A DNA stretch of 62,773 nt, from assembly GCA_948469815.1 (NCBI GenBank), contig CAOKMR010000002.1:1-62773 (forward strand), in the 5' to 3' direction. Both the position numbers and the translations under genes were made by a program. The notes under the pieces were generated by a model. The model saw only the letters and a program-made list of their open reading frames with translations. It searched no databases and was not told the DNA's origin. Of this stretch, positions 5,483-49,401 are shown in pieces. Source of the stretch: an uncultured Clostridiaceae bacterium. GTDB lineage: Bacteria; Bacillota; Clostridia; TANB77; CAG-508. Numbering within the stretch: position 1 is the first letter of the stretch; every line of letters begins with the position of its first letter.

Positions 5483-6052
5483 ATGGATAATTTAGAGGAA
5501 CAAATAAATAGAGATATAAAAGAAAGATTAACAGAGCATAGATATAATCATTCAATAGGAGTAATGAAAAAGGCAGAGGAGTTAGCAAAATTTTATGGAT
5601 TAGATAGTAAAAAAGCAAGAGTAATAGGATTAGTACATGATATAGCAAAACAGATGAAACCATCAGAAATAGAAGAATACATATCAAAATATAATGTAGA
5701 ACTTGATGAGATAGAAAAGTCTAATACAGAACTCATACATGCAAAAATTGGTGCAGATATAAGTAAAAGAAAATACAATTTTGATGATCAAATGGTAAAT
5801 GCAGTAAAATATCATACAACAGGTCATCCAAATATGGATATGATGGCAAAGATTATATTCATAGCAGATAAAATAGAAGAAAATAGAGATTATGAGGGAG
5901 TAGAAGAAAAAAGACAATTAGCATACCTAAATATAAATAAGGCAATAATAGAAACAATAGATTATACAACAAAAGACAGTATAAATAGGGGAAAAATGAT
6001 ACATACAGACTCAATTGATACAAGAAACTATTTATTAAAGAAAATCTATTAA
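5483..6052 (+). CDS. yqeK: HD-domain hydrolase, YqeK family (bis(5'-nucleosyl)-tetraphosphatase-like)
   Basis: 189 aa with H..HS.GV near the N-terminus, LVHDIAK, and the YHTTG motif typical of YqeK. Confidence 0.75.
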   Translation: MDNLEEQINRDIKERLTEHRYNHSIGVMKKAEELAKFYGLDSKKARVIGLVHDIAKQMKPSEIEEYISKYNVELDEIEKSNTELIHAKIGADISKRKYNFDDQMVNAVKYHTTGHPNMDMMAKIIFIADKIEENRDYEGVEEKRQLAYLNINKAIIETIDYTTKDSINRGKMIHTDSIDTRNYLLKKIY

Positions 6053-9233: not shown

Positions 9234-9255
9234 TTTGTTACTAATTTGTTACTAA
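9234..9255. repeat. attL core (tttgttactaatttgttactaa)
   Basis: Identical 22-mer at 49380-49401. Imperfect similarity (16/21) continues for 21 more nt. Confidence 0.8.
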
Positions 9256-9265
9256 CAAGGTGTAA

Positions 9266-10420
9266 TTAGTGGAAATTTACAGCCTTTAAATAGGTAATTT
9301 TTTCATGTTTTTTCTTTCTATAATTTATTAATTCAATAGTAGATTTTAATTCCTCAATTGTTCTTTGATTATATACTTTATTTCCAGTATTACCATTTTG
9401 ATGTCCCATAAGAAGATCCATACATTTATCATCTGCTCCCATTCTATCTAACTCTGAACGAAATGTATATCTTGTTTCGTGAGTTGTGTAATCATCTTCT
9501 AATTCTAATTTATTCATAAATTCAACATACATTAATCTATATTTATCATAATATAATCTTTCTCCATTATCCATCATAAAAAGATACATATTATTTTTAT
9601 TATAATATTTTTTTACTATTGGAACAATGTCGTGATGTAGAGGGATTAATCTGTTTTTACCAGCTTCTGTTTTTAATCCACAGATCCAGTATTCATCTTC
9701 CATATTAATACTTGCTATGTCTAAAAATAAAAGTTCTTCAATTCTCATTCCTGTATAAAGAAGAATAAGTTGTATATCTGCAACTAGATTCCCTTCATAT
9801 TCCCATATTTTTTCTATTACTTCATAAGTATATGGGCTTCTTTGTTCATCCGATTCCTCATATTCAATTTCCAATAATGCTCCATATCCTTTTATAATAA
9901 TATCCTCTCCAAGTGCATAATCATCTAATTTCATTATTAAGTTACGCATATCTACAATTTTTGTTTTCTTTCCTTCTGTAGCATAAATAATTTGTTGAAA
10001 ATCATTCTTTTTTAAGGAAGCATATTTTTTATTATATAGTGGTTTGAATTTTTTAGCTGCAGCTAATAATCCCATTGAATTTGAAAGACCAAGTTTCCCT
10101 TTTATAGTTTCGTGTGTCTTTCGCATTCTTTTTCGTTCCTCTTTAGTAGGTATAAATATTTCTTCCCATTCATCTAATAATTGTTTAAAGGTATAAGTTA
10201 ATTTGTTTACATTTAAATTACTATGGTTTTTATTCCACCAAATCAAAGCTTCTTCAGCTTCAGCTCTTGAAGCAAAATATTTTTCTCCTTTTTCATTACA
10301 TATTGCTTTTTGAATAGGTTGTCCATTTTCTTTATATCCCACGGTTGCTTTTGCAAACCAGGGTTTTCTACGATTACCTTTTAATTTAACAATAGTACCT
10401 GTGCCATTTGCTCTTTTCAT
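9266..10420 (-). CDS. int: Phage integrase, tyrosine recombinase
   Basis: 384 aa with TGMRIEEL (Arg I), HETRYTF, LLMGH and ..KVYNQR (Tyr) boxes. Lies directly next to attL. Confidence 0.95.
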   Translation of the reverse strand: MKRANGTGTIVKLKGNRRKPWFAKATVGYKENGQPIQKAICNEKGEKYFASRAEAEEALIWWNKNHSNLNVNKLTYTFKQLLDEWEEIFIPTKEERKRMRKTHETIKGKLGLSNSMGLLAAAKKFKPLYNKKYASLKKNDFQQIIYATEGKKTKIVDMRNLIMKLDDYALGEDIIIKGYGALLEIEYEESDEQRSPYTYEVIEKIWEYEGNLVADIQLILLYTGMRIEELLFLDIASINMEDEYWICGLKTEAGKNRLIPLHHDIVPIVKKYYNKNNMYLFMMDNGERLYYDKYRLMYVEFMNKLELEDDYTTHETRYTFRSELDRMGADDKCMDLLMGHQNGNTGNKVYNQRTIEELKSTIELINYRKKKHEKITYLKAVNFH

Positions 10421-25500: not shown

Positions 25501-25578
25501 TGCAGAATAGCTTAATTGGTAAAGCAGCCAGCACACATGGGCTGTAATATGTGGGTTCAAATCCTACTTCTGCAACCA
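25501..25578 (+). tRNA. tRNA-like gene with encoded CCA and an aberrant, enlarged anticodon arm (anticodon not assignable)
   Basis: Acceptor stem tgcagaa/ttctgca, D-arm gctt-aattggta-aagc, T-arm gtggg-ttcaaat-cctac, discriminator A plus CCA. The anticodon region agccagcacacatgggctg only folds with an 8-10-nt loop lacking U33. Confidence 0.5.
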
Positions 25579-36606: not shown

Positions 36607-36909
36607 GTGGCCTCAAGTTTGAAAACACAATATGGTTATAGTGTTAGAAAAGAAATCGATAATTTAGACTGGGGAGAATTAATAAGTGATATTTCAGGGC
36701 TAAAAGGAGATACACCACTTGGAAACATTATAAGAATTAGAAAAGAAAAAGATCCTGAAGTATTAAAAAAGTTTACTCCTGAAGAAATTAAAATACGAAA
36801 TGAATGGTTAAATAAATCAGCATCTCAAATAAGTGAAGAAAATTATAAACAAGCTATGGAAAGCATAAAAAATATGTTTAAAACTATGGCACAAAGTGAG
36901 GTGAGATAA
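36607..36909 (+). CDS. Tail assembly chaperone extension (gpT-like); frame open from 36526 in +1 relative to the upstream ORF
   Basis: No SD or ATG; the only start is GTG 36607. The frame overlaps the last 30 nt of the gpG-like ORF. Confidence 0.5.
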   Translation: MASSLKTQYGYSVRKEIDNLDWGELISDISGLKGDTPLGNIIRIRKEKDPEVLKKFTPEEIKIRNEWLNKSASQISEENYKQAMESIKNMFKTMAQSEVR

Positions 36910-39900
36910 TGAGTACAAATGTAGGAGAAATTGATCTTAGTTTAATATTAAATAGTGGTAAATTTAGTTCACAATTGAAAAATATTGATGCACAAGCAAA
37001 TACTGCTTCTTCTAAAATCTCATCATCATTGTCTAAAATTGGTAAGGCTGCACTCGCAGCTTTTTCTGTTGCTGCAGTAGTTAAATGGGGAAAAGAATGC
37101 TTAAATGTGGCAACCGAAACTTCTAATGCTTGGATAGGGTTAAATTCAATATTAACTGGCCAAGGAAAAAGTTTTGATAAGGCAAAACAATTTATTAATG
37201 ATTATATATCAGATGGTTTAGTTCCTTTGAATAATGCTGTAACAGCATATAAAAATTTGGCAGCAAGAGGGTATAACGAAGATCAAATCAAAAAAACAAT
37301 GATAGCATTAAAAAATAGTGCAACATTTGGTAGACAGAGCACATATACCCTTGGCGAAGCAGTACAAACTGCATCTGAAGGTTTAAAAAATGAGAATAGT
37401 ATATTAGTTGATAATGCAGGTGTTACAAAGAATGTAGCAAAAATGTGGGAAGATTATGCAAAATCAATAGGAAAAACAACAAATAATCTTACACAGCAAG
37501 AAAAGATACAAGCAGAAGTAAATGGAATTTTACAAGAAACAAAATTTCAAAGTAATGATGCTGCGATTTATGCAAATACTTATTCAGGAAAAGTAGCACA
37601 ATTATCACAAGCATTTACAACTATGAAAACAGCAATAGGAAATGTAATACAGCCAATTGCAAAACTATTTATACCAATTGTTACAAGTGCAATAAATGTA
37701 GTTACAAAATTATTTACAGCAATTTCAGGTCTACTTGCATTATTTGGATTAAAAGCTGATAGTGTTGAAACAGTATCAAGTGGGATGGGAGATTTAGCAA
37801 CTTCGGCGAACAATGCTTCTGATGCAGTATCAGGAGTAGGAGATAGTGCAAAAAAAGCAGGAAAAGATGCAAAAAAAGCTTCAAATAATTTGGCAGCATT
37901 TGATAATTTAAATGTACTTCCAAAAGATACATCTTCTTCAGGAAGTGGAGGTGCTGGAAGCAGTAATGTAGGTGCAGGATTAAAAGATTCGCTAGATGTA
38001 TCAAGTAAAATTACTGAAGATACATCTGCATTTGATAGTTTAATTGGTAGAGTAAAAGAATTAGCAAGCATATTCAAAGAAGGATTTGATATTAGTTTTG
38101 GAAATACAAACTTTGATGGCATAATAAGTCATTTAAATGGAATAAAAAACACACTTATTGATATTTGGACAGATCCTGATGTGTTAAATTCAGCAAAACA
38201 ATGGGCTGATACTATGTTATATTCATTAGGACAAACAGTTGGTGCTGTTGCAAGAATTGGTACAAATATCATTGAAGGTTTTGTTGGAAGTATAGACAAA
38301 TATTTGTCACAAAATGTAGACAGAATTAAAGGGTTTATTTGTAAAATGTTTGATATTTCAAGTGCTGATATGGCTTTGACAGGTAACCTTTGGCAAGCAC
38401 TAGGAGAAATTTCTGATGTATTTAAAAGTGATGTGGCAAAACAAATAGGTGCTGATATTATTGCAATGTTTGCAAATCCCTTAATGAGTGCATTAGAATT
38501 ATGTAGTAAATTTGCACTTGATGTAAAAAGTGTATTGTTTCAGCCAATTATAGATAATGCAGAAAAAATAAAAACCACTATTGAAAATGTAATGAAACCA
38601 ATACAAACATTTACAGGAACTTTAGCAGAAGCAATGACTTATGTAGGTGATAAATGGAACGAAGTTTATGATCAACATATACATCCTTTTATGGAAAGCC
38701 TAAAAACAGGATTAAGTGATACTTTTGGAAAGTTTTTAGATGTATATAACACTTATGTTGTTCCTTTTCTACAAAATATGGCAAATAAGTTTAACGAATT
38801 ATGGAATACACATTTAAAACCATTTGTAGATAAAGTTGGAGAACTTATTGGAAGTATAGCAGATGCATTGACAGCTTTATGGGAAAATATTTTAAAACCA
38901 GTTGTAGATTGGATTATTCAAAATATTATACCAGTTTTAGTTCCAATATTTGAAAGTTTATGGAATACGATATGCAATGTTTTTGGAGCAATAGCTGACA
39001 CAATAGGAGGAATAATTGATACTTTTAGAGGATTAATAGATTTTATTGTAGGAATTTTTACAGGAGATTGGAATAAAGCTTGGGAAGGTATAAAGACTTT
39101 CTTTGGTGGAATTTGGGATGCAATAAAAGGTATTGTATCAGTTGTATGGAATGCAATTAAAGGAATAATTGAAACAGTTATAAACATCATAAAAGGAATT
39201 ATAACAACAGTATTTAATGCAATAAAGACTGTTATAACTAATATATGGAATGGAATTAAGACAACAATTTCTAATGCGATAAATGCAATTAAGAACACAA
39301 TAACAAATATATTTAATGCAATAAAGCAGTTTTTTACAGATGTATGGAATAGCATTTCAAATACTATTAAAAATTTAATAAATGGTATTAAAAATACAAT
39401 TTCAAGTGTGCTAAATACTATAAAATCAATATGGTCAAATATATGGAATGGCATTAAATCAACAGTAACAAATATATGGAACAATATTTCAAGTACAATT
39501 TCAAATGTTATAAACAATATAAAGAATACAATTTCAAATGTTATAAATAGCATAAAATCCGTATGGGATAATGTTTGGAATGGAATGAAAAATACAATTA
39601 CAAATGTCTTTAACGGAATATGGAATACCATAAAAGGAGTCATTAATTCGATTTTAGGTGGCGTTGAAAAAATGGCAAATGGAGTTATAAATGGAATTAA
39701 TGGAATGATTAGAGCATTGAACAATTTGAGTTTTGATGTACCTGACTGGGTTCCTGGATTAGGTGGCAAAAAATTTGGATTTAACATAGGAACAATAGGC
39801 AATGTCTCATTACCAAGACTTGCTGAAGGTGGATATGTAAAAGCCAATACACCACAATTAGCAATGATAGGAGATAACAAAAATCAAGGAGAAATTGTTG

Positions 39901-40115
39901 CTCCTGAAGATAAGATAATCGAAAATGTAATAGAGGCATTAAAATTATTCTTTAAAGAGCAGGCCAATAGCAGTAGAAGCAATAATAATAAAGAAAATAC
40001 TATTGTTATAAACTTTGAAGGAAGTTTAGCACAACTTGTTAGAATACTAAAACCAGAACTTGACAATGAGAGTTTAAGAAGAGGAACAAAATTAGTTATA
40101 GGAGGTACTTCATAA
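36909..40115 (+). CDS. Tail tape measure protein
   Basis: 1068 aa with hydrophobic/Gly-rich segments and a long repetitive W/N/I/K-rich region. Called from position. Confidence 0.9.
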   Translation: MSTNVGEIDLSLILNSGKFSSQLKNIDAQANTASSKISSSLSKIGKAALAAFSVAAVVKWGKECLNVATETSNAWIGLNSILTGQGKSFDKAKQFINDYISDGLVPLNNAVTAYKNLAARGYNEDQIKKTMIALKNSATFGRQSTYTLGEAVQTASEGLKNENSILVDNAGVTKNVAKMWEDYAKSIGKTTNNLTQQEKIQAEVNGILQETKFQSNDAAIYANTYSGKVAQLSQAFTTMKTAIGNVIQPIAKLFIPIVTSAINVVTKLFTAISGLLALFGLKADSVETVSSGMGDLATSANNASDAVSGVGDSAKKAGKDAKKASNNLAAFDNLNVLPKDTSSSGSGGAGSSNVGAGLKDSLDVSSKITEDTSAFDSLIGRVKELASIFKEGFDISFGNTNFDGIISHLNGIKNTLIDIWTDPDVLNSAKQWADTMLYSLGQTVGAVARIGTNIIEGFVGSIDKYLSQNVDRIKGFICKMFDISSADMALTGNLWQALGEISDVFKSDVAKQIGADIIAMFANPLMSALELCSKFALDVKSVLFQPIIDNAEKIKTTIENVMKPIQTFTGTLAEAMTYVGDKWNEVYDQHIHPFMESLKTGLSDTFGKFLDVYNTYVVPFLQNMANKFNELWNTHLKPFVDKVGELIGSIADALTALWENILKPVVDWIIQNIIPVLVPIFESLWNTICNVFGAIADTIGGIIDTFRGLIDFIVGIFTGDWNKAWEGIKTFFGGIWDAIKGIVSVVWNAIKGIIETVINIIKGIITTVFNAIKTVITNIWNGIKTTISNAINAIKNTITNIFNAIKQFFTDVWNSISNTIKNLINGIKNTISSVLNTIKSIWSNIWNGIKSTVTNIWNNISSTISNVINNIKNTISNVINSIKSVWDNVWNGMKNTITNVFNGIWNTIKGVINSILGGVEKMANGVINGINGMIRALNNLSFDVPDWVPGLGGKKFGFNIGTIGNVSLPRLAEGGYVKANTPQLAMIGDNKNQGEIVAPEDKIIENVIEALKLFFKEQANSSRSNNNKENTIVINFEGSLAQLVRILKPELDNESLRRGTKLVIGGTS
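39110..39660 (+). repeat. Degenerate tandem coding repeats inside the tape measure gene
   Basis: Recurring ..IWNGIK..I.N.IN.IKNTI.N.. units, more than 10 copies at the protein level. Confidence 0.6.
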
Positions 40116-40501
40116 TGGCAATTACATATGATTTTATAATAATTGATGGACAACAATATAATATTGATGTTTATATAGGAATCAAAGAAACAGCAGATTT
40201 TTTAGATAAATATGCAAATAGAACAGACGATGGAGACCTCCAAAGAGAATTGATTGGTGTTTATTTTAATTATTCTGATATTAAGTTCGAGCCACAAACA
40301 GACAATAATTATGATGAATTTGAAAGGCTATGGAATAAGCTAACAGAAGCAGAGGAATTTCATACAGTTAAGATTGCTAATCTTGAATTTAAGGCATACT
40401 TCAATAATGTTTCAAGAGTAATTTACGATTTTAGAAATAATAAAGCATATAAAAAAGATATGACTGTAAACTTCACAGCTAAAAAGCCAGCAAGGAGTTG
40501 A
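40115..40501 (+). CDS. Tail protein (distal-tail position)
   Basis: 128 aa, immediately after the tape measure gene. Confidence 0.5.
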   Translation: MAITYDFIIIDGQQYNIDVYIGIKETADFLDKYANRTDDGDLQRELIGVYFNYSDIKFEPQTDNNYDEFERLWNKLTEAEEFHTVKIANLEFKAYFNNVSRVIYDFRNNKAYKKDMTVNFTAKKPARS

Positions 40502-40507
40502 TAGAAT

Positions 40508-42217
40508 ATGAAAACAAAAGCAAGTATAACATTTGGATTAGTTGATGTTACAGCAAAAGAAGATAGTACCATAACAGTTAATGATAAGCAAAATTTTGTA
40601 GATATTATGGATTTAAAAAAAGATAATATTGAAGAAATTAAATATGGTACTTGTGAGAAAAATCAATTTGCATTAAATGGAACATTTCAGCTAATGCCAG
40701 ATTATGAACAATTAGAAAATATGTGCTGGTGGTCAAATAAAATGAGTAATGAAAAAGGCGAATTTGATACGCCTCTAGTTATGGAAATAAATTTTACAGA
40801 AGCACATAGCAGTTTAGGTATTACTTTAATATTTAGTTCTGCGAATGATTATTGTAGCAAGCTAAATTTAAAATATTATGATATAAATAATAATTTGTTA
40901 AGTGATTCTGATTATTATCCTACAAATTACTATACTATATGCAATAATATTTGTGAGAACTACCATAAAATTGTTATTACATTTTATAGTACCAATAACC
41001 CATATAGATATTTAAAATTATATAAAATCTTGTATGGTGCTGAAAAGGTCTTTGAAGGTGATAGTTTAATGAGTGCAAAGCTATTAGAGGAAACAAGTCT
41101 AATCAGTGATGAGCTTACTATAAATACTTTAGACTTTACTTTATTTTCTGAAAATGATGAGTTTAACATTGTAAATCCACAAGGATTTTATAGGTTGCTT
41201 CAGCAAAGGCAAAGATTAAATGTAAAGGAAACATTATTAAAAGAAAATAAAGAAAAAGATATGGGAGTGTATTATCTGAACTCTTGGAAAAATAAAGAAG
41301 ATAAAATAATGGAAATGAGTGCAACTGATATTATTGGGGTATTAGACAAAACAAGCTTCAATGGAGGTATGTATAAAAAAATCAAGTTCAAAGATCTGAT
41401 CAAAGAAATCTTGGAATCAGCTAGATTATATAATGATGAATATAGTATAGAAGATAGTTTAAAAAATATTGAACTTACAGGATACATTCCTATTTGCAGT
41501 CATAGAGAAGCATTACAACAAGCTGTATTTGCTGTTGGTGCGATTGTTAATTCTACACGAGGATCAGTCATAAAAATGTATCCACTTAATACAGAAGCAG
41601 AAATTGTAAATACAATGGATAAAACTAATGTATGGCAAAATACAAAAAAATTCACACAAATGGATATAGTAACTGGAGTAGAAGTAACAGCACATGAATA
41701 TGTTGCTGATACAGAAGAAACTAAATTATATGAAGCAAATTTAAAAGCAGGAAATTCAAAAGTTGTATTTAATGAACCAGTAGCAAGTATGACCTGCGAA
41801 GGTGGAACAGTTATTGAAAGTAATTGTAATTATGCTATTATTTATTGCTCTAAAGATAGCAATGTTGTTATTAGTGGATATAAATATAAAGATAATATGC
41901 AGACTTATTTAGTGGAAATTAAAAATTTAGATCCAACATTAAAACAAAACACTTTAAAGGTAGAATCAGGATATTTAATAGATAGAAATAATGCTGAAGA
42001 AGTAGGGGCAAGAATATTAGCATATTATGAAAAAACTTATAAAACAGAATATACTAATGTATTGAAAAATGAGGAACTTTCTAACTGTGTGGATGTTGAA
42101 GGATATGCTGGACAAAAACTAAAAGGAGTTATAACAAAACAAGATATTGATTTGACTGGTGGATTTATATCAGATACAGAAATAATTGCTAAAATAAAGG
42201 AGGACGAAGATGGATAA
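40508..42217 (+). CDS. Tail-tip/baseplate protein
   Basis: 569 aa; called from position. Confidence 0.55.
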   Translation: MKTKASITFGLVDVTAKEDSTITVNDKQNFVDIMDLKKDNIEEIKYGTCEKNQFALNGTFQLMPDYEQLENMCWWSNKMSNEKGEFDTPLVMEINFTEAHSSLGITLIFSSANDYCSKLNLKYYDINNNLLSDSDYYPTNYYTICNNICENYHKIVITFYSTNNPYRYLKLYKILYGAEKVFEGDSLMSAKLLEETSLISDELTINTLDFTLFSENDEFNIVNPQGFYRLLQQRQRLNVKETLLKENKEKDMGVYYLNSWKNKEDKIMEMSATDIIGVLDKTSFNGGMYKKIKFKDLIKEILESARLYNDEYSIEDSLKNIELTGYIPICSHREALQQAVFAVGAIVNSTRGSVIKMYPLNTEAEIVNTMDKTNVWQNTKKFTQMDIVTGVEVTAHEYVADTEETKLYEANLKAGNSKVVFNEPVASMTCEGGTVIESNCNYAIIYCSKDSNVVISGYKYKDNMQTYLVEIKNLDPTLKQNTLKVESGYLIDRNNAEEVGARILAYYEKTYKTEYTNVLKNEELSNCVDVEGYAGQKLKGVITKQDIDLTGGFISDTEIIAKIKEDEDG

Positions 42218-42935
42218 TTTAATATTTGATAGATTATCAAGTGATGTTGATAATGCACTGAATAATCCAAACAGCACTCAAGATTTAAAAGGTGCTTATA
42301 ATTATTCTGACCTAAATAGGGTTGAATCTTGGTGTGAATATTTGCAACATTTTTTAGAAATATGGGGATTTAAAAAAGAATTAATCGTAAAAAAAGACTG
42401 GAATATTAGAGATTATCCAACAAGAACAGAAGTAGACAGAATAAGAAATAACATTAACACACTAAAAAGTTTTTGCCAAGCAATTCAAACAGAAAATATA
42501 TTATATAACAACACATTAAATTATGAACAAGCAAATGCATTAGAAAAAATAATGTATGATATAGTTCAGCATATTGAAACCAATAGTAGAACTGATGATT
42601 TTGACTATTATGTGGCCATATTTTCAATGTGTGAAAAATTTTACGATATGAATATAAACGAGGATGTATTATATAAATACAGAGAAACCAAACAAAATAA
42701 TGAAATAGGAATCACAGTAACAAAAAATAGTTTCTGTGATTTTAATTTAGATGTACATAAGTGGGAAAAAGATTCAAAGACATCTATGTTTTTAGCTGCA
42801 GCATTAAGAGCAATTGTAAAGGTAGAAACTACTTTAAATCAAGAGTCTTATGATGTAAATAGAAATATAGAAAATAGTTATAATTATGGATTATATATAA
42901 CTACAAATAAATTTATAGATATGGAGGTAATTTAA
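42210..42935 (+). CDS. Hypothetical tail-associated protein
   Basis: 241 aa; called from position. Confidence 0.45.
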   Translation: MDNLIFDRLSSDVDNALNNPNSTQDLKGAYNYSDLNRVESWCEYLQHFLEIWGFKKELIVKKDWNIRDYPTRTEVDRIRNNINTLKSFCQAIQTENILYNNTLNYEQANALEKIMYDIVQHIETNSRTDDFDYYVAIFSMCEKFYDMNINEDVLYKYRETKQNNEIGITVTKNSFCDFNLDVHKWEKDSKTSMFLAAALRAIVKVETTLNQESYDVNRNIENSYNYGLYITTNKFIDMEVI

Positions 42936-42936
42936 T

Positions 42937-44082
42937 ATGAGTACAGGTGTATGTTACATAACAACACAGGGAGCAATTTTATCAGCAAAAACCTTGCAAG
43001 GCAAAAAATTAGAAATAACAAAATTTACTGCAGGAGATGGATATTTAACAGATGATAGCGTTGATGCAATAAAAGCTCTAACAAATTTAGTTAGTTCAAA
43101 AATATCATTTCCTGTAACAAATATTGTTAGAGATACAAATACAAGAGTAAAAGTGCAAGGTACTTTTAGAAATATTGATATTGCAGAAGCATTTTATTTT
43201 AGAGAATTAGGGTTATGGGCAATAGATCCTGATACAGTTTCTTTTGCATTAACTACAGATACAGAAATAAACAGTACAAAAACATATTATACTTATAATT
43301 CTTCTACAGGAGAATATACAGCAGTTTCAAGTCCAGCTTTAGCAGATATTGGAACATATTATGAAAGATCATATACAGAAGTGCTATTTTCATATATTAA
43401 CTATGGAGATGTAGCAGAGTATATAAATAATTCAATTTCAGAGGTTCAGGAAAGGTTTTATACACAAAACATTGTTGTTGATAATGCAAGCAATGTTACA
43501 ATTACAATAGATCCTTATGCTTCTTATGCTACAATAAGAGATTTACAACAAGCAGTTGATGATTTAGAGGAAGAAATAGACACTAAAATATCATCAGTTT
43601 ATAAATATAAAGGTAGTGTAAATGCTTATAGTAATCTACCCACAACAGGACAAAAAGTAGGAGATGTATATAATATTGAAACAGCAGACTCAACACACGG
43701 AATTAAAGCTGGAGATAATGTTGCTTGGAATGGTACAAGCTGGGATTCGCTTGCAGGAACAATTGATCTATCTGCATACATTACATCAGAAACTGCAGCA
43801 AATACTTATGTTTCAAAATCAAGTTTAGCACCAAACGCAATGAATTTAACGCCTAATATGTTTATCCAAGATGGTGATTTATATAAATGCACTGTTACAA
43901 ATACACAAGTAACAGCTTCAAGTTCCGTTTGGGTAGATATTTCAAAAGATACAATGTCTATTGCAGAAGAGGCAGGTGTAAAAAGTTATGTTACAATAAA
44001 TGCAGGAAGTTTTGAAATTTATGCCGATGCAGTTCCAAGTGCTAATATTACAGGAAGTTATATCATATTAGGAGGTGCATAA
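42937..44082 (+). CDS. Tail fibre protein
   Basis: 381 aa. N-terminal ..YITTQGAILSAKTLQGKKLEITKFTAGDG.. resembles tail-collar/fibre N-termini. Confidence 0.6.
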   Translation: MSTGVCYITTQGAILSAKTLQGKKLEITKFTAGDGYLTDDSVDAIKALTNLVSSKISFPVTNIVRDTNTRVKVQGTFRNIDIAEAFYFRELGLWAIDPDTVSFALTTDTEINSTKTYYTYNSSTGEYTAVSSPALADIGTYYERSYTEVLFSYINYGDVAEYINNSISEVQERFYTQNIVVDNASNVTITIDPYASYATIRDLQQAVDDLEEEIDTKISSVYKYKGSVNAYSNLPTTGQKVGDVYNIETADSTHGIKAGDNVAWNGTSWDSLAGTIDLSAYITSETAANTYVSKSSLAPNAMNLTPNMFIQDGDLYKCTVTNTQVTASSSVWVDISKDTMSIAEEAGVKSYVTINAGSFEIYADAVPSANITGSYIILGGA

Positions 44083-44083
44083 T

Positions 44084-45208
44084 ATGGGCTATGGGAGAAC
44101 AAATTTAGCATTAGGGCCAATAAATGTACTAGCAAATAGAGTTAGACCTATTATAATGGGTGTAAAAAGACAAATTTCATCTTCAGCTACAGCTTGGGAA
44201 AGAACAGATGGATCTATTGGGATGGTGGCCAATGCTACTCACGATGGAACAGCAGTACAAAACGACTTTGATACAGCACCAATTTATGCAGATATCTTAA
44301 CAATGGATATATCAGCAAATGGCAATATTAATAGAAAATACGGAGATGCAGATTTTTCTTTCACGAATCCAGTAGGTTATATTGTAACTTATTTCCCAGA
44401 ATTTTGGTACAAAAGATGGCAAGCAGATGGTTGGGAATACATACAAATAAGCAATGTAGAACAAGAAGGTTTTGAATATTCAGAGCCTTTTTATATAGGA
44501 AGATATACTACAGGTGGTAATAGTTCGGCTGTTACTTGTAAGAGTGGCGTTTCAAGTTTTGTAAATATTTCTATTACTAATTTGAGAACATATAGTAAAA
44601 ATGTTGGAGCAGGTTGGGGACTAATGGACATATGGAGATGGTCAATGCTTCAGCTTCTTTATTTAGTTGAGTATGCAGATTATAATAGTCAAGCAAAATT
44701 AGGATATGGAAATTGTAGTACATCAGCAGCTATAAATACAGGAAGTTGTGATGCTTTAGGTATGAAGTCAGGATGTATAAAAAACGATAAAAAATCAGGT
44801 GTTATTTATAGAGGAGTAGAAAATATATTTAGTAATATATACCAATGGCTTGATGGAATTAATATAGGTACAGGTCCAAAATCTTGGGTGTGTAAAGATA
44901 GAAGTCAATATGCATCAGATAAAACTGCAAGTCCATATGTTCAAGTAAGTTATACAGAGGCATCAGGAAGTAGAATATCAAAAATGGGATACGATCCTAA
45001 TAACCCAGCAGTACAAAGAGCGATTGAATGTAGCGGCTCTGATACGACCCACTGCCCAGACTACTTCAGCTCGAGTTCTGGTTGCGCTGTGTTTGTTGGT
45101 GGTGATTGGAATGATGGTTTGAATTGTGGCTTGTGGTGCGCTAGTTGCAACAGTGCTTCGGGCACTCACACGAGCATCGGCGGTCGCCTTCTTTTCATAC
45201 CAGTATAA
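44084..45208 (+). CDS. DGR target: receptor-binding tail protein with C-terminal C-type-lectin/FGE-sulfatase-like variable region
   Basis: C-terminus ..GGDWNDGLNCGLW..SIGGRL contains the VR. ATG 44084 lies 8 nt after GGAGG; the track start at 44075 is GTG. Confidence 0.85.
   Translation: MGYGRTNLALGPINVLANRVRPIIMGVKRQISSSATAWERTDGSIGMVANATHDGTAVQNDFDTAPIYADILTMDISANGNINRKYGDADFSFTNPVGYIVTYFPEFWYKRWQADGWEYIQISNVEQEGFEYSEPFYIGRYTTGGNSSAVTCKSGVSSFVNISITNLRTYSKNVGAGWGLMDIWRWSMLQLLYLVEYADYNSQAKLGYGNCSTSAAINTGSCDALGMKSGCIKNDKKSGVIYRGVENIFSNIYQWLDGINIGTGPKSWVCKDRSQYASDKTASPYVQVSYTEASGSRISKMGYDPNNPAVQRAIECSGSDTTHCPDYFSSSSGCAVFVGGDWNDGLNCGLWCASCNSASGTHTSIGGRLLFIPV
45061..45191 (+). repeat. DGR variable repeat (VR)
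   Basis: 131 bp aligned without gaps to TR. There are 11 mismatches, all at TR adenines. GC-rich 3' end catcggcggtcgccttc (IMH-like). Confidence 0.9.
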
Positions 45209-45209
45209 C

Positions 45210-45236
45210 GGGGGTTTGGGGGTGGTCAACCCCCAT
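45210..45236 (+). other. GC-rich hairpin immediately downstream of VR and the stop codon
   Basis: gggggtt...aaccccc (or ggggg-tggtcaa-ccccc), starting 2 nt after TAA 45206-45208. Confidence 0.55.
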
Positions 45237-45334
45237 AAAGATTAACTGAAATACAATGGAGTTATATTTTCTTTAGATTTCTTTTATAATCATCATAGGG
45301 GATTTGATGTGCGACAGCCCATTTGTGTTGTTTA

Positions 45335-45465
45335 CTACTTCAACTCGAGTTCTGGTTACGCTGTGTATGTTGGTGGTAATTGGAATGATGGTTTGAATTG
45401 TGGCTTGTGGTACGCTAATTACAACAGTGCTTCGAACACTAACACGAACATCGGCGGTCGCCTTC
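45335..45465 (+). repeat. DGR template repeat (TR), part of the TR-RNA
   Basis: The invariant copy, carrying AAC/TAC codons where VR is substituted. Lies 136 nt upstream of the RT gene. Confidence 0.9.
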
Positions 45466-45601
45466 ACTTATATCAAAATATAAAGAACTTGCACATCATT
45501 TTCCTTGCCACTCGGCAAAAATTAATCGCTCTGGATTAGCTTAGTAGTCCCATTATGGATCGAAAAGTTGGTAGATGATATAAAAGAAAAGAGAACCAGG
45601 T

Positions 45602-46657
45602 ATGAAAAGAAAAGGAAATATTTACGAAAAAATATGTACTTTTGAAAACTGCAAACTAGCAATAATTAAGGCATCAAAAAATAAAAAGTATAGAAATGAT
45701 GTAAATTGTATTTTGAATAATATAGACAATTATGCAATGAACTTAAGTAAAATACTAAAAAACAAGACATATGAACCAAGTCCGTATATTGAAAAGAAAA
45801 TATATGATGGAGCAAACAAAAAAGAAAGAGTAATATATAAACCTAAATTCTATCCTGACCAATGTGTACATTGGTCTTTGATGTTGCAAATAGAGGATAT
45901 CCTAAAAAAAGGAATGTATGACTGGAGTTGTGCGGCAATCGAGGGAAGAGGTGTACATTATGGAGCAAGGCATATTAGGAAAATACTTGTTAGGGATAGA
46001 AAAAATACAAAATATTGCTTGAAATTAGATATCAAGAAATATTATCCCTCTATAAACAAAGAACTACTAAAAAAGAAATTTAGAAGAATAATAAAAGACT
46101 ATGATGTTTTAAATTTAATAGATTCAATTATAGATAGTTCTGCAGATGGACTACCAATAGGAAATTTTACTTCACAATGGTTTGCAAATTTTAATCTTCA
46201 AGATTTGGATCACTATATAAAAGAACAATTAAAAGTAAAATATTATATTCGCTATATGGATGATATGGTTTTATTCCATAGGAACAAAAAAGAACTTCAC
46301 AAAATAAGAATAGCTGTAGATGAATTTTTACACAAAGAAGGTTTAAGAATAAAAGAAAATTGGACATTATTCAAAGTAGATAGTAGGCCAATAGATTTTA
46401 TGGGCTTTCGTTTTTACAGAGGATATACAACTTTAAGGCGAGGCATATTCCTACGAATGAAACGCAGAATCAAAAGAATATATAAAAAAGGGAAAATAAC
46501 ACAAAATGATGCAGGTGCAGTAATGAGCTATCATGGATGGATAACTAACTCTAATTCATATAAAATACATCAAAAATATGTAAGACCATACATAAATATG
46601 AAAGAATGTAAGCAAGTATTGAAAAATCAAAAGAAGATTCTAAAAAAAGACTTTTAA
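45602..46657 (+). CDS. DGR reverse transcriptase
   Basis: 351 aa with LPIGNFTSQWFAN (DGR-type SQ motif), YIRYMDDMVLF (YxDD) and FMGFRF. Confidence 0.93.
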   Translation: MKRKGNIYEKICTFENCKLAIIKASKNKKYRNDVNCILNNIDNYAMNLSKILKNKTYEPSPYIEKKIYDGANKKERVIYKPKFYPDQCVHWSLMLQIEDILKKGMYDWSCAAIEGRGVHYGARHIRKILVRDRKNTKYCLKLDIKKYYPSINKELLKKKFRRIIKDYDVLNLIDSIIDSSADGLPIGNFTSQWFANFNLQDLDHYIKEQLKVKYYIRYMDDMVLFHRNKKELHKIRIAVDEFLHKEGLRIKENWTLFKVDSRPIDFMGFRFYRGYTTLRRGIFLRMKRRIKRIYKKGKITQNDAGAVMSYHGWITNSNSYKIHQKYVRPYINMKECKQVLKNQKKILKKDF

Positions 46658-46694
46658 TAGTCTTTTTTTTATTGAATCAGAAAGGATGGGTACA

Positions 46695-46940
46695 ATGGAA
46701 CAAAATTTTGAAACAGAAGTATTAACAAGATTGACTAAAATTGAAACAAAACTTGATGATTATAAATCAGTAAAAGATAAATCTGATACAGCTTATACAA
46801 TAGCAATCGAAAATCAAAAAGAAATAGAAGAAATTAATGAAAGAATAAAATGGATCACAAGGACTGTAGTAGCTGCAGTTATAACTGGAGTAATTGGAAT
46901 AGGAATTGCACTATTAAAAAGTGGAATTGGAATCCATTAG
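46695..46940 (+). CDS. XhlA-like lysis accessory protein
   Basis: Coiled-coil N-terminus and a single C-terminal TM helix (VVAAVITGVIGIGIALL). ATG 46695 has better RBS spacing than 46686. Confidence 0.65.
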   Translation: MEQNFETEVLTRLTKIETKLDDYKSVKDKSDTAYTIAIENQKEIEEINERIKWITRTVVAAVITGVIGIGIALLKSGIGIH

Positions 46941-46955
46941 AAAGGAGGATTTGCT

Positions 46956-47156
46956 ATGAGAAAAGCTTGGGATGATGTAAAATCGTTTGTAACAGTAGTA
47001 ATGACAATAGGATTAGTGTTGTTGCTATTTATACCAAACTTAAATCCACCTACAGAAATAATTGCATTATACTGTACAAGTTATGGATCGATAATGACAT
47101 ATTTCTTTACTAAAAAAGATGGTGGAAATACTGAAAATGCTGATAAAAGTGAGTAA
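46956..47156 (+). CDS. Holin
   Basis: 66 aa with two TM helices and a charged C-terminus. Lies between the XhlA-like gene and the endolysin gene. Confidence 0.65.
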   Translation: MRKAWDDVKSFVTVVMTIGLVLLLFIPNLNPPTEIIALYCTSYGSIMTYFFTKKDGGNTENADKSE

Positions 47157-47181
47157 ACAAACTATACTAACTTAAAATAAA

Positions 47182-47218
47182 AATGGCTTAAAACGCAACA
47201 TTGCAAGCCATTTTTTTA
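47182..47218 (+). terminator. Rho-independent terminator after the holin gene
   Basis: aatggctt...aagccatt followed by TTTTTTT. Confidence 0.65.
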
Positions 47219-47248
47219 ATACCAAGATAAATTTCTGGTATTTATATA

Positions 47249-47285
47249 AAACAGGAAGAAAATTTAAAAATCTTCCTGTTTTTCA
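47249..47285 (+). terminator. Second hairpin terminator
   Basis: aaacaggaaga-(11 nt)-tcttcctgttt followed by TTT. Confidence 0.6.
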
Positions 47286-47312
47286 TTTTATAAAAGAAAG
47301 GAGCGATTTTTT

Positions 47313-47387
47313 ATGGAAGAAGAAATCGAATTGACTGAAGAAATGAAACAAGAATTAACAAATGGAAAGGAAGAAGGTGAAGAATAA
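47313..47387 (+). CDS. 24-aa highly acidic leader-like ORF coupled to the endolysin start (TAATG)
   Basis: AAAGGAG RBS upstream. Sequence is MEEEIELTEEMKQELTNGKEEGEE. Its stop overlaps the endolysin ATG. Confidence 0.3.
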   Translation: MEEEIELTEEMKQELTNGKEEGEE

Positions 47388-48391
47388 TGGGAACAATGTC
47401 AAGTTTAGCACAAGGTGCTTATATTGCTCATTCTAACAATTATCAAAAAGGAAGAAATGGGCATAAAATTTGTAAATTTACTCCTCATATTATGGCAGGA
47501 ATTTTAACAGGAAAACAATGTGCAGTTAATATTTTTCAAAAACCTAATAGGATCGCATCAGCAAACTATTGTATAGGAAATGATGGAGATTTAGTATGCA
47601 ATGTTTACGAAGAAGATAGAGCATACACATCAAGTTCAAGATCAAATGATAATCAAGCAATTACAGTTGAAGTTTCTAATTGTGAAATTGGTGGAGAATG
47701 GAAAATTTCTGATGCTGCGTGGAATACTTTAGTTAAATTAGCAGTTGATGTATGTAGAAGATATAATTTTAGGTTAGTTTATGATGGAACACCTAATGGA
47801 AGTCTAACAAGACATAATATGTTCGCCAATACATCTTGTCCTGGTAAATATCTACAAAGTAGATTCCAAGAACTCGCAGATACAGTAAATGCTCAATTAG
47901 ATGGTGGAAATATACCAGTTTCAAATCCAAATACAAGCAAAAAATCAAATGAAGAAATTGCAAACGAAGTTATTGCTGGTAAATGGGGAAATGGATCTAA
48001 CAGATTTAATAGATTAGCACAAGCAGGTTATGATGGAAATGCTATTCAAAATATTGTAAATCAAAAATTAGATGGATCAGTTTCAGCACCTAAACCAAGC
48101 AAAAAGTCTAATGAAACTATTGCACAAAAAGTAATAAATGGTGCTTGGGGTAATGGAGAAGATCGCAAAAATAAATTAAGTGCAGCAGGATACGATTACA
48201 ATGTAATTCAATCAATAGTTAATCAAAAATTAGGGACAAAACCTGTTTCAAATAAAGAATCAAACGAAACAATAGCGAATGAAGTTATCCAAGGCAAATG
48301 GGGCAATGGACAAGACAGAAAAAACAAACTTATTGCAGCAGGGTATGACTATAATGCTATACAAGCAATTGTAAATAGAAAATTGAAATAA
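47387..48391 (+). CDS. Endolysin: N-acetylmuramoyl-L-alanine amidase (amidase_2/PGRP-like) with three Cpl-7-like cell-wall-binding repeats
   Basis: N-terminal catalytic region (..NQAITVEV.., ..H..F..TSCPG) plus three ~43-aa repeats SNE.IA.EVI.GKWGNG..R.N.L..AGYD.N.IQ..VN.KL. Confidence 0.9.
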   Translation: MGTMSSLAQGAYIAHSNNYQKGRNGHKICKFTPHIMAGILTGKQCAVNIFQKPNRIASANYCIGNDGDLVCNVYEEDRAYTSSSRSNDNQAITVEVSNCEIGGEWKISDAAWNTLVKLAVDVCRRYNFRLVYDGTPNGSLTRHNMFANTSCPGKYLQSRFQELADTVNAQLDGGNIPVSNPNTSKKSNEEIANEVIAGKWGNGSNRFNRLAQAGYDGNAIQNIVNQKLDGSVSAPKPSKKSNETIAQKVINGAWGNGEDRKNKLSAAGYDYNVIQSIVNQKLGTKPVSNKESNETIANEVIQGKWGNGQDRKNKLIAAGYDYNAIQAIVNRKLK

Positions 48392-48415
48392 TATAAAAGG
48401 GAGATTGTTTCTCCC

Positions 48416-48589
48416 TTATTGTATATTTTTTAATTTTTGTTGTATATTATTAATAGAACTATAAAGTTCTGAAACAGAAGTATTTAATAAGTCTATATTC
48501 TTGATTTCATTAACACAGCTTTCAACAATATTTTTCTTATTAATCTTCTGTTTCTTTTTACTTTTGTATTCAATTAAAAAATTGCTCAT
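48416..48589 (-). CDS. 57-aa ORF translationally coupled (ATGA) to the upstream XRE gene; not in ORF track
   Basis: Its ATG (48589..48587) overlaps the TGA of the XRE gene. Lys-rich N-terminus. Confidence 0.35.
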   Translation of the reverse strand: MSNFLIEYKSKKKQKINKKNIVESCVNEIKNIDLLNTSVSELYSSINNIQQKLKNIQ

Positions 48590-48798
48590 TTTTTTGACTT
48601 TTCCTTTCTTACAATAATATCACCAGGTTCACATCCTAAAATCATACACATTTTATCTAATGTATCAAATTTTATTCCAGTAGTAGTATTATCCATTAAA
48701 TGAGACAGTGCTTGATAACCTCCTTCCATATTTTTTATAAACCAATATTTTGTTTTCTTTTGTTCTTTTAGTATTTCATTTACTCTAACATATATCAT
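48586..48798 (-). CDS. XRE-family HTH protein
   Basis: MIYVRVNEILKEQKKTKYWFIKNM...LDKMCMILGCEPGDII HTH. GGAGG lies 7 nt upstream of ATG 48798. Confidence 0.75.
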   Translation of the reverse strand: MIYVRVNEILKEQKKTKYWFIKNMEGGYQALSHLMDNTTTGIKFDTLDKMCMILGCEPGDIIVRKEKSKK

Positions 48799-48951
48799 CT
48801 CATCACCTCCCTTCATTATAGATATTGTAAAACAAACTATAATTTATTTTAACTGCAACATATTTGACTTAAAGCAGTTATACCTAATTTACAAAATAGG
48901 TGTGAAATGATATAATAATGCTGAATCAAAAAACAAAAGAGGTATTGTTAT

Positions 48952-49113
48952 ATGGAGAAAAATATTATTGAATCGTTGGATAATATAAATAAACTTATAG
49001 AAGAAAGAAAATATCAAGAGGCAAAAAACTATATAAAAAAGACAAAAGCAGAGATGTCAAATAAAAACAATCCATCCAGTTATATAGATGATCTAGTTGA
49101 TAATTTAAAGTAA
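48952..49113 (+). CDS. 53-aa hypothetical ORF (prophage-end moron region)
   Basis: ATG with AAAAGAGG upstream; helical, charged sequence. Confidence 0.3.
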   Translation: MEKNIIESLDNINKLIEERKYQEAKNYIKKTKAEMSNKNNPSSYIDDLVDNLK

Positions 49114-49379: not shown

Positions 49380-49401
49380 TTTGTTACTAATTTGTTACTA
49401 A
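49380..49401. repeat. attR core
   Basis: Identical 22-mer to 9234-9255. Confidence 0.8.

Follow-up and report, generated by a model that had tools for sequence, protein, structure and literature searches.

A diversity-generating retroelement lacking avd in the tail module of a temperate Clostridia prophage, with signs of recent activity

Genomic context and target gene

The 62,773-nucleotide stretch of contig CAOKMR010000002.1 analysed here (hereafter the window) contains a temperate, siphovirus-like prophage of approximately 40 kb that carries a diversity-generating retroelement (DGR) within its tail module (Table 1). The prophage extends for ca. 40.2 kb between two att repeats (9234 to 49401), is inserted next to guaA in the genome of a low-GC, spore-forming member of the Clostridia, and encodes an integrase, a CI-like repressor, a terminase, a tape-measure protein and a lysis cassette. 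In the tail module, the stop codon of the tail-fibre gene lies 1 nt before the ATG of the DGR target gene, which is followed by the template repeat (TR), the reverse transcriptase (RT) gene, and then directly by XhlA, holin and endolysin genes, with no accessory gene in between. A first-pass annotation of this DNA had assigned the element to the prophage tail-fibre gene; the association with a prophage tail protein holds, while the target proved to be a separate gene downstream of the fibre gene.

Table 1 Coordinates of the features of the prophage and its retroelement (positions in the window)
Feature	Position	Strand	Evidence and details
attL, left copy of 22-nt exact direct repeat TTTGTTACTAATTTGTTACTAA	9234..9255	.	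repeat match
Tyrosine integrase gene, adjoining attL	9266-10420	-	
Tail-fibre protein, N-terminal collar domain	42937..44082	+	Pfam PF12571, phrog_7037
DGR target gene, tail protein, 374 aa	44084..45208	+	phrog_5302 'tail protein' 3e-51; AF2; Foldseek
Mosaic core module	44690..46095	+	identical to L031 except at VR A-sites; phage otherwise ~35% divergent
VR (variable repeat)	45060..45191	+	132 nt
A-free, GC-rich VR 3' end, IMH-like block (TCGGCGGTCGCCTTC), 15 nt	45177..45191	+	repeat comparison
G-run GGGGG, just 5' of hairpin	45210..45214	+	conserved in nearly all related loci
GC-rich hairpin, 25 nt past VR	45217..45235	+	fold, conservation, compensatory changes across loci
Putative -10 element TATAAT of TR-RT transcript promoter	45285..45290	+	identical in 16/17 diverged loci
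Conserved RNA leader GGGAUUUGAUGUGC, 5' strand of TR-enclosing duplex	45299..45312	+	conservation, pairing
TR (template repeat)	45334..45465	+	132 nt, 30 adenines
AU-rich linker between TR and duplex strand, 25 nt	45466..45490	+	poorly conserved; 13 nt in L033
GCACAUCAUUUUCC, 3' strand of long-range duplex	45491..45504	+	pairing in 17 loci, shuffles
Rfam RT-18 RNA (RF03021)	45506..45586	+	58.0 bits vs gathering score 41.3, E 4.8e-10, full-length model
DGR reverse transcriptase, 351 aa	45602..46657	+	RVT_1 2e-17; phrog_1423 4e-110; bRT 8UB7 4.6e-29
attR, right copy of 22-nt repeat	49380..49401	.	repeat match

The variable repeat (VR) covers the C-terminal ~50 residues of the target. PHROG 5302 was the sole family matched by this protein, as no family was found in Pfam and NCBIfam, where the FGE-sulfatase, DUF1566 and Mtd models remained unmatched. 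When PDB sequences were searched with a profile of the target family, the best match was sub-threshold (5VF4, E 0.11), and it took a fold search to settle the fold. With an AF2 model of pLDDT 93, the top Foldseek matches were TaqVP (E 1.4e-8, probability 1.0; whole-protein TM-score just 0.43-0.46), then Mtd and TvpA, with the FGE-like PvdO and EgtB also present after TaqVP. These model-based matches support the C-type-lectin/FGE-like fold that had been suspected from the sequence, with the variable residues located in the C-terminal segment. The same placement is found in TaqVP (PDB 5VF4), Mtd (1YU0) and TvpA (2Y3C), although sequence identity to the target is 11-14% and TM-scores range from 0.3 to 0.46. 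The target stands alone, whereas in its homologues this domain is joined to an N-terminus of tail-fibre, BppU or prepilin type, and the target would probably act as a receptor-binding protein.

Template and variable repeats

VR and TR are homologous over 132 nt without gaps, at an offset of 274, and the homology ends abruptly after the GC-rich block. Upon recomputation, the alignment is one base longer than first noted (132 vs. 131 nt, with 30 rather than 29 TR adenines), and the mismatches are exactly as first described: 11 in number, each opposite a TR adenine (nine A>G, one A>T, one A>C), with no difference at any other base. The probability that 11 randomly placed mismatches would all land on the 30 TR adenines is ~1.6e-8. 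The resulting codon changes from TR to VR (N>S, Y>C, Y>F, N>D, Y>C, N>S, Y>C, N>G, N>H, N>S) agree with the AAY-type design and the VR residues listed in the first-pass annotation. TR adenines occupy codon positions 1 (14) and 2 (16) and never position 3, in contrast to the remainder of the target gene, in which 137 of 356 adenines are found in position 3. A stop codon cannot arise from any A>N change in TR, and the 21 variable codons allow for ~6e17 possible proteins. A search for further VRs across the window, including remote ones, returned none besides this single copy.

Reverse transcriptase and absence of avd

The RT open reading frame is intact and contains the motifs LPIGNFTSQ and RYMDDM, in accordance with the DGR-specific IGNFTSQ and YMDD motifs reported initially; IGNFTSQ conforms to the DGR RT signature [I/V/L]GxxxSQ (PMC7826257). 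The best match in the PDB is the bRT of the Bordetella phage (8UB7, residues 2-299), while group II and retron RTs match far more weakly (~1e-10). Close relatives sought in the phage GenBank collection were limited to weak RT-only matches, namely the crAss-like cr55_1 and the Psychrobacillus phage Perkons.

Avd is encoded by 74% of DGRs, and Architecture A, which lacks it, accounts for 29% of the 372 DGRs of Wu et al. 2018 (PMC5758913). No avd was detected in Pfam/NCBIfam scans of 49 small ORFs (Pfam to E ~1e-3; NCBIfam within the best 25 of 64 families), no match to PF05635 at E<=1 was obtained when 20 small prophage ORFs were scanned one by one, and no four-helix-bundle match was found in the window. 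The compact target-TR-RT order is shared by the whole RT lineage and was seen in ~50 related loci, in which the spacing leaves no space for an avd gene. By its gene layout, the element falls under Architecture A, the known avd-less type. It shares with Architecture A1/Lineage 3 the TR-RT core, the target immediately upstream, and the lack of accessory genes (avd, HRDC, MSL and CH1 are absent from the A1 core; PMC5758913), while the long-range duplex, RT-18 and post-VR hairpin consensus reported below are not described there. The element, which the first-pass annotation called complete, is so for an avd-less lineage; measured against the majority of DGRs, it lacks the avd gene.

RNA elements between TR and RT

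The TR RNA seems to be transcribed from a promoter of its own. A TATAAT hexamer precedes the conserved leader by 8 nt, being replaced by TATACT in a single related locus (L066), and the putative transcription start of the TR RNA is at the leader; a consensus promoter scan did not call the TR promoter, whose -35 element is weak. The leader and the segment 3' of the linker form a duplex of 12 bp plus two U.U that brackets TR. This long-range duplex is 100% paired in 17 loci and was matched by 0 of 500 shuffles; it has two covarying pairs, its pairs being mostly invariant and hence neutral as covariation evidence. The whole-region MFE fold of TR and spacer has a z-score of ~0, so energy alone is uninformative and the argument rests on conservation and covariation.

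The spacer that follows matches the Rfam RT-18 RNA. It opens here with a small stem-loop (UGCC-ACUC-GGCA), continues as an A-rich unpaired stretch, and ends in a long stem interrupted by two interior loops (UAGUAG / CGAAA). It also scores above the gathering threshold in 11 of 14 related loci, at the same position and in every case immediately ahead of the RT start codon. RT-18 was originally described merely as 'near RT genes', with only RT-10 being tied to a DGR, that of BPP-1 (Weinberg et al. 2017, PMC5737381); in the avd-less DGR lineage studied here, its place is precisely the interval that separates TR from RT. The duplex, the short stem-loop, the A-rich strand and the long stem are collinear with the 'cPRT Stop', 'thumb ring' and bRT-binding elements of the BPP-1 RNA (bioRxiv 10.1101/2023.10.23.563531), and the functions that we assign to the individual RNA elements are putative ones following this analogy.

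The priming site presumably lies within the AU-rich linker. A conserved stem-loop like the Avd-binding one of BPP-1 was sought in this linker and none was found. A priming nucleotide could not be designated by analogy with Sp A56, as no conserved template:primer fold-back was found, and the sole priming candidate, a fold-back of 45468-73 with 45478-83, is not conserved.

VR 3' end and downstream hairpin

VR and TR both carry the GC-rich block CATCGGCGGTCGCCTTC, as the initial description of an IMH-like block conserved in both copies had it. The last adenine seen mutated is at position 45176, and cDNA transfer must therefore start at or 3' of the A-free block. Since this block is identical in VR and TR, it cannot by itself tell acceptor from donor, a distinction that must reside in the divergent sequence and the hairpin downstream of it.

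This hairpin (stem TGGGGGT/ACCCCCA of 7 bp, loop GGTCA of 5 nt) starts 9 nt after the stop codon of the target gene. It is conserved across related loci, with three covarying pairs among sequences that were chosen for their ability to pair. The distance to VR, the GC-rich 7-9-bp stem, the loop and the upstream G-run are all kept among RTs that are 40-60% identical. An alternative hairpin, in which the upstream G-run would pair with the C-run, was rejected, as covariation gives it no support. In BPP-1, the equivalent hairpin is needed for homing and can be located 4-34 bp from VR (PMC3240598), a range that includes the 25 nt seen here; its loop, however, is a 4-nt GRNA needed for function, as opposed to the 5-nt GGNCA loop of our lineage, which also has the additional G-run upstream. 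By analogy, the hairpin is likely a target-recognition hairpin or cruciform.

Related prophages and VR turnover

Cognate copies of the element were retrieved from ENA assemblies via a protein index and from GTDB genomes, the sister loci L001 and L002 originating from two other ENA metagenome assemblies. Exact-pattern scans with the VR 3' end and its downstream sequence gave no matches in JGI metagenome contigs or IMG/VR. Between L001 and the window, 16 of 9,017 aligned bases differ, all of them in VR and opposite TR adenines, with no differences in TR, spacer, RT and ~9 kb of flanking phage DNA. The VR changes are thus younger than any background mutation, which points to recent retrohoming in the window and sister prophages, as far as sequence comparison can tell. 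The apparent activity claimed at first is borne out by this sister prophage. On essentially the same TR, VR has accumulated 11 changes in the window, 15 in L001, 10 in L031 and 14 in L032, so that all 50 VR-vs-TR differences in the four cognate copies are at TR adenines. Among 14 proteins of the sister lineage, 18/18 A-containing TR codons are variable vs. 0/23 non-A codons, and only 2 of 325 residues upstream vary. To judge from the identity with L031, the 1.4-kb core is a module exchanged between phages.

Discussion

We consider it very probable that this is a functional DGR, acting in the tail module of a temperate Clostridia prophage in the following way. An RNA comprising the leader, TR and the RT-18 spacer and running into the RT gene would be transcribed from the dedicated promoter. 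The leader would pair with the segment 3' of TR and hold TR in a closed loop, with RT-18 immediately after it. RT would then copy TR into cDNA, misincorporating opposite adenines, and the cDNA would replace VR in the target, guided by the GC-rich 3' homology and by the downstream GC hairpin, whose role in homing is proposed by analogy. Randomization of the 21 codons on the ligand-binding face of the C-type-lectin-fold tail protein would alter the host or receptor range.

The repeats could also have arisen by chance or recombinational duplication, with VR alleles being shuffled by homologous recombination and no reverse transcription taking place. Mosaic recombination around the cassette is clear, but the adenine-only differences of the four cognate copies, the lack of adenines in codon position 3 of TR, and the adjoining DGR-clade RT leave this explanation effectively refuted. 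That the element was once active and is now a silent relic in this lysogen, the VR differences between prophages being old, is very unlikely. The evidence for activity comes from the comparison of prophages, and copies do die, given that the RT of L083 in the sister lineage has an in-frame stop; the RT of the window is, however, intact and identical to that of L001, and the 16 VR differences contrast with none in TR, spacer and the 9-kb flanks. The hairpin, in turn, might merely terminate transcription or stabilize the mRNA of the tail operon, in line with its closeness to the target stop codon and with the G.T pairs of several loci, which are tolerated only in the sense strand and fit an RNA hairpin. 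We regard this as unlikely for a hairpin that has no T-run and was not called by a terminator scan, has RT and lysis genes downstream on the same strand, keeps its VR distance, stem, loop and G-run across diverged RTs, and has a BPP-1 counterpart required for homing (PMC3240598).

The weightier question is what takes the place of Avd. With neither Avd nor an Avd-binding RNA stem-loop, the element most likely works with RT and RNA alone, or with some other factor, and would as such be Avd-independent. Our tentative reading, to which we give slightly less than even chances, is that the lineage represents a minimal DGR of natural origin, with RT and its own RNA as the only requirements; that this RNA keeps the 'cPRT Stop' duplex, the stem-loop, the adenosines and the RT-binding stem of RT-18, the Avd-binding stem-loop having been lost together with avd; and that the functional unit is a ~1.4-2.6-kb cassette which, to judge from the natural mosaics, can be carried from phage to phage. 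Alternatively, an accessory protein, Avd-like or other, could be supplied in trans, either by a very divergent phage protein or by a host factor, in which case there would be no true two-component system. This is possible, if rather doubtful: the bRT of BPP-1 alone makes no cDNA from DGR RNA, and Avd positions the template:primer duplex (PMC6182149; bioRxiv 10.1101/2023.10.23.563531), Avd proteins are poorly conserved (PMC5758913), and many small prophage ORFs are unannotated, but PF05635 found no match even at the permissive threshold in the 20 small prophage ORFs scanned, the RNA has no counterpart of the Avd-binding stem-loop, and no other gene travels with the 1.4-kb module when it passes between divergent phages. 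Wu et al., moreover, detected no avd elsewhere in genomes that harbour avd-less DGRs and already proposed Avd-independent retrohoming (PMC5758913).

The BPP-1 DGR (mtd-avd-TR-brt) likewise diversifies a receptor-binding protein of the phage tail, whose VR is C-terminal and lies on a C-type-lectin fold, and shares the adenine-only TR/VR differences, an RT with [I/V/L]GxxxSQ and YMDD, and the GC-rich VR 3' end with a GC hairpin downstream. It differs in having avd and the Avd-binding stem-loop, both missing from the window element, in the spacing between TR and the duplex strand (58 nt vs. 25 nt in the window), in the upstream duplex strand, which is the 3' end of avd in BPP-1 and a non-coding leader in the window, and in the spacer RNA (RT-10 vs. 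RT-18). The Faecalibacterium phages Lagaffe and Roos are also temperate phages of gut Clostridia with DGRs on tail/adhesion proteins, whose activity was likewise deduced from the comparison of cognate genomes, although phages and hosts differ from those of the window (PMC11792537).

Implications

DGRs on phage tail proteins are abundant and well catalogued in gut Clostridia, and the element described here is an ordinary instance of this known class, albeit one with clear signs of recent activity and without the usual Avd helper gene. To our knowledge, the mechanism of avd-less DGRs has never been studied experimentally. The window provides an unusually clean natural case, in which otherwise identical prophages of separate samples are distinguished solely by VR positions that correspond to TR adenines, and it supplies concrete, testable elements for the avd-less class, i.e., a promoter, a duplex around TR, the sub-domains of RT-18, and the hairpin after VR together with the G-run preceding it. 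The RNA architecture of BPP-1 is retained in the absence of Avd, making the question of what replaces this protein addressable on a 2.6-kb fragment that may also be of interest for engineering DGRs toward targeted mutagenesis. If the lineage is indeed a minimal DGR, it would answer the question raised by Wu et al. 2018 of how avd-less DGRs work, and would offer a smaller chassis for DGR-based directed evolution.

Repeat pair and template design

Recomputing the alignment between the variable repeat (VR) and the template repeat (TR) of the diversity-generating retroelement (DGR), with the region 43900–46900 re-read, gave 132 ungapped nucleotides at an offset of 274 nt, one base more than the 131 of the first-pass annotation, and the homology stops abruptly at either end. 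The count of 11 differences reported there was exact; at every one TR has an adenine, which is replaced in VR by G nine times and by T and C once each. Non-adenine mismatches numbered zero, and the probability that 11 random positions would all fall on the 30 adenines of TR is 1.6e−8. In the frame of the target (the DGR-diversified tail gene) the TR codons hit are AAC, AAT, TAC, and TAT, and the residues at the changed VR codons (S, C, F, D, C, S, C, G, H, S) match those listed previously. All 30 TR adenines occupy codon positions 1 or 2, compared with a 38% share of adenines at position 3 in the remainder of the target gene. No stop codon can be reached by an A>N change, and the 21 variable codons allow for ~6e17 possible proteins. 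The GC block described as IMH-like is common to VR and TR as stated, but cannot by itself define directionality.

Positions of the DGR components and of other prophage features
Feature	Position	Remarks
Direct repeat, 22 nt, exact	9234–9255 and 49380–49401	Bounds the ~40.2-kb prophage
Tyrosine integrase		Prophage, adjoining guaA
CI-like repressor; terminase		Prophage
Tail tube gene; tail terminator gene		Prophage
1,068-aa ORF	36909–40115	Tape-measure candidate by position
Collar-domain gene	42937–44082	Directly upstream of the target
Target gene (+)	44084–45208	374 aa
VR	45060–45191	132 nt
Second G-run	45210–45214	5′ of the hairpin
Hairpin TGGGGGT-GGTCA-ACCCCCA	45217–45235	25 nt after VR, 9 nt after the stop codon
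TATAAT	45285–45290	Identical in 16/17 loci; TATACT in L066
Leader GGGAUUUGAUGUG(C/U)	45299–45312	Near-invariant in 17 loci; 8 nt 3′ of TATAAT
TR	45334–45465	132 nt
(G/A)CACAUCAUUUUCC	45491–45504	Near-invariant in 17 loci; 25 nt 3′ of TR
RT-18 (Rfam)	45506–45586	TR-RT spacer
Reverse transcriptase (RT) gene (+)	45602–46657	351 aa
Lysis cassette: XhlA, holin, amidase/CW_7		Immediately 3′ of RT

VR turnover in related prophages

At 90% identity the target clusters with a protein 97% identical to it, which is located on contigs of two other ENA metagenome assemblies. When positions 40084–49100 were compared with the sister prophage L001, all 16 differences over 9,017 aligned nt were placed in VR opposite TR adenines, and TR itself was identical. 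The VR of L001 differs from TR at 15 positions, adenines only, and the two VRs combined hit 20 of the 30 TR adenines. Essentially the same TR is present in loci L031 and L032, whose VRs have 10 and 14 changes, respectively, again at adenines only. In a sister lineage with a target 87% identical to that of the window (21 cluster members, 14 proteins compared), variable codons comprised 18/18 A-containing TR codons vs. 0/23 non-A codons, with variation at just 2 of the 325 initial target residues; many of the more distant homologue clusters at 90% identity hold hundreds to > 1,000 members. Therefore, VR rewriting outpaces background mutation, an indication of recent retrohoming as strong as sequence alone permits. 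The earlier wording "apparently active" stands for recent VR turnover between prophages, which does not prove activity in this very lysogen. One prophage of the sister lineage (L083, 4525–5600, ENA ERZ14864800) has an in-frame stop at RT codon 273 (GFRFY*GYTTL, R in the window) and appears to be a DGR inactivated lately within a lineage of otherwise highly diversified VRs.

The target protein

The target matched PHROG 5302 "tail protein" (3e−51) and no family in Pfam or NCBIfam. An AlphaFold2 model based on 50 homologues (pLDDT 93, pTM 0.92) was searched against the PDB with Foldseek, and the top match was TaqVP, the DGR variable protein of Thermus aquaticus (E 1.4e−8, probability 1.0), followed by PvdO, Mtd, TvpA, and the FGE-like enzymes EgtB/SenA. 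Because of these results the proposed C-type-lectin/FGE fold is upheld, supported by predicted structure and not by sequence models. The target codes for a separate tail protein and is distinct from the fibre gene itself; the gene directly 5′ of it has the N-terminal collar domain of tail fibres. In homologues elsewhere the variable domain is fused to tail-fibre, BppU, or prepilin N-termini. Four of them (P0086, P0094, P0111, and P0114) are cellular proteins in which this variable CLec-type domain is joined to the prepilin-type N-terminal methylation domain PF07963, which suggests DGR-diversified pilins akin to the phage tail protein. In P0130, a 388-aa protein in the P0002 cluster, the ORF runs from VR directly into TR-downstream sequence (...IGGRLILYQIKYKYLHIIFHSPC), either an assembly collapse over the VR/TR repeat or a true VR-TR deletion.

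Reverse transcriptase and absence of avd

The RT is intact, matches RVT_1 and PHROG 1423, and has the motifs LPIGNFTSQ and RYMDDM; the signature of DGR RTs is [I/V/L]GxxxSQ, as opposed to QGxxxSP in other RTs (PMC7826257). Its closest solved structure is bRT, the 328-aa RT of the Bordetella phage BPP-1 (8UB7 series; E 4.6e−29, residues 2–299), with group II and retron RTs at about 1e−10, in agreement with the DGR-type RT recognized initially.

The gaps between the target stop codon and TR (126 nt) and between TR and the RT start (136 nt) are short, and the lysis genes follow RT without an intervening gene. No Avd-type family (accessory variability determinant, the usual DGR helper) was detected among the 49 small ORFs of the whole window by Pfam and NCBIfam scans: PF05635 was absent at E < 1e−3 in Pfam, no four-helix-bundle family occurred among the best 25 of 64 NCBIfam families, which rules out strong matches only, and 20 unannotated small prophage ORFs scanned singly gave no Avd at E ≤ 1. 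An RT-based scan of GTDB genomes recovered 80 loci, chiefly from gut Clostridia and Bacilli MAGs, ~50 of which had adenine-biased TR/VR pairs in a repeat scan. In these ~50 loci TR ends ~135 nt before RT, VR lies 55–245 nt 5′ of TR, and none leaves space for avd between target, TR, and RT. The same TR-RT arrangement without accessory gene is Architecture A of Wu et al., 29% of 372 DGRs, who noted that one lineage "notably lacks avd" and suggested Avd-independent homing (PMC5758913); a full-text search of later literature did not find the term "Avd-independent". Described as complete, the DGR is intact but avd-less, and is of an already known kind, the Architecture A type.

Candidate cis-elements

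The sequence between the hairpin and the start codon of RT was aligned in full for 17 loci. In it the leader pairs with the post-TR segment over 12 bp plus two U.U; this duplex is paired in 17/17 sequences, with two compensatory pairs (C-G/U-A/U.G and G-C/A-U) and a covariation score reached by 0/500 shuffles. The AU-rich linker between TR and duplex is unconserved and shortened to 13 nt in one related locus (L033). Downstream follow UGCC-ACUC-GGCA, AAAAAU, and a long stem interrupted by two interior loops (UAGUAG/CGAAA). According to the cryo-EM structure of the BPP-1 RNP, TR is followed there by an Avd-binding stem-loop, the primer strand and, after the third element ("cPRT Stop"), a short stem-loop, unpaired adenosines, a single-stranded "thumb ring", and a long stem that binds bRT and has two interior loops (bioRxiv 10.1101/2023.10.23.563531), the survey in that paper covering Avd-bearing DGRs only. 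From the duplex onward the window RNA is collinear with BPP-1 elements 3 to 7; the sole element absent is the Avd-binding stem-loop, and TR is 25 nt from the duplex compared with 58 nt in BPP-1. The priming nucleotide was sought and not located.

The spacer scored 58 bits for RT-18 (gathering score 41.3), which was also found in 11/14 diverse related loci, always ending right before the RT start codon. Among the RT motifs of Weinberg et al. only RT-10 was linked to a DGR (the BPP-1 spacer), a DGR role of the others being merely speculation (PMC5737381). An inverted repeat (TAACT-N12-AGTTA, 45243–45264) kept in many related loci overlaps the putative promoter of TR-RT at its −35 region and could be an operator through which transcription of the DGR RNA is regulated.

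The hairpin arrangement recurs across the lineage with compensatory stems (GAGGGC/GCCCTC, GGGGGAG/CTCCCCC, AGAGGGAGA/TCTCCCTCT). In 17 distinct sequences in fixed register, chosen for their ability to pair, double changes occurred in 3/7 pairs, a score reached by 0/500 shuffles. Homing in BPP-1 depends on the counterpart, a 7–10-bp GC hairpin located 4–34 bp past VR (PMC3240598), whose 4-nt GRNA loop differs from the 5-nt consensus GGNCA of this lineage. Recurrent G.T pairs, which are C.A mismatches on the opposite strand, hint that the functional form is the hairpin of the sense strand. A consensus terminator was ruled out, as there is no T-run. The G-run 2–3 nt 5′ of the hairpin is kept almost everywhere in the lineage; its pairing with the C-run of the 3′ arm was unsupported and does not explain it.

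Mosaicism and tandem templates

The flanking phage genes of L031 and L032 are ~35% divergent from the window, yet across 44690–46095 L031 is identical except at VR A-sites and L032 has three further differences (one each in TR, spacer, and RT). Locus L003 is the reverse mosaic, 10–30% divergent within 44200–46100 and nearly identical outside. All three share a right breakpoint at ~46095–46100, in RT at ~residue 165, and what is exchanged extends from the target's C-terminal half (CLec domain) through VR, hairpin, putative promoter, TR, and RT-18 to the RT N-terminal half (~165 aa), with no other genes. This DGR core block behaves as an exchangeable module.

Between target and RT, 3–4 TR-like copies per locus were observed in L007 (5024–5860), L006 (4881–5860), L005, L008–L011, L013, L019, and L039. 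In L007, the copy at 5261 acts like a template for that at 5571 (11/13 mismatches at 5261 adenines), and the real VR at 5024 looks chimeric, with a 5′ half similar to the TR nearest RT (5747) and a 3′ half similar to copies 5261/5571. Such patterns point to alternative templates in tandem or to switching of cassettes.

Prophage context and significance

The window has a GC content of ~28%. The prophage flanks code for SpoIIM and a DpaB-like protein, for which reason the assignment to a prophage in a spore-former holds. The endolysin (47387–48391) has Amidase_2 and three CW_7 repeats for cell-wall binding; the XhlA-like protein and the holin-like ORF (66 aa) are encoded between it and RT. ARAGORN predicted a tRNA-like gene with a two-base anticodon "(ca)" inside the prophage (25501–25578, +).

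Judged by its sequence, the element is a real DGR, intact and active in the recent past. It offers a clean natural case of the mechanistically unstudied avd-less class, for which explicit candidate cis-elements are now defined.
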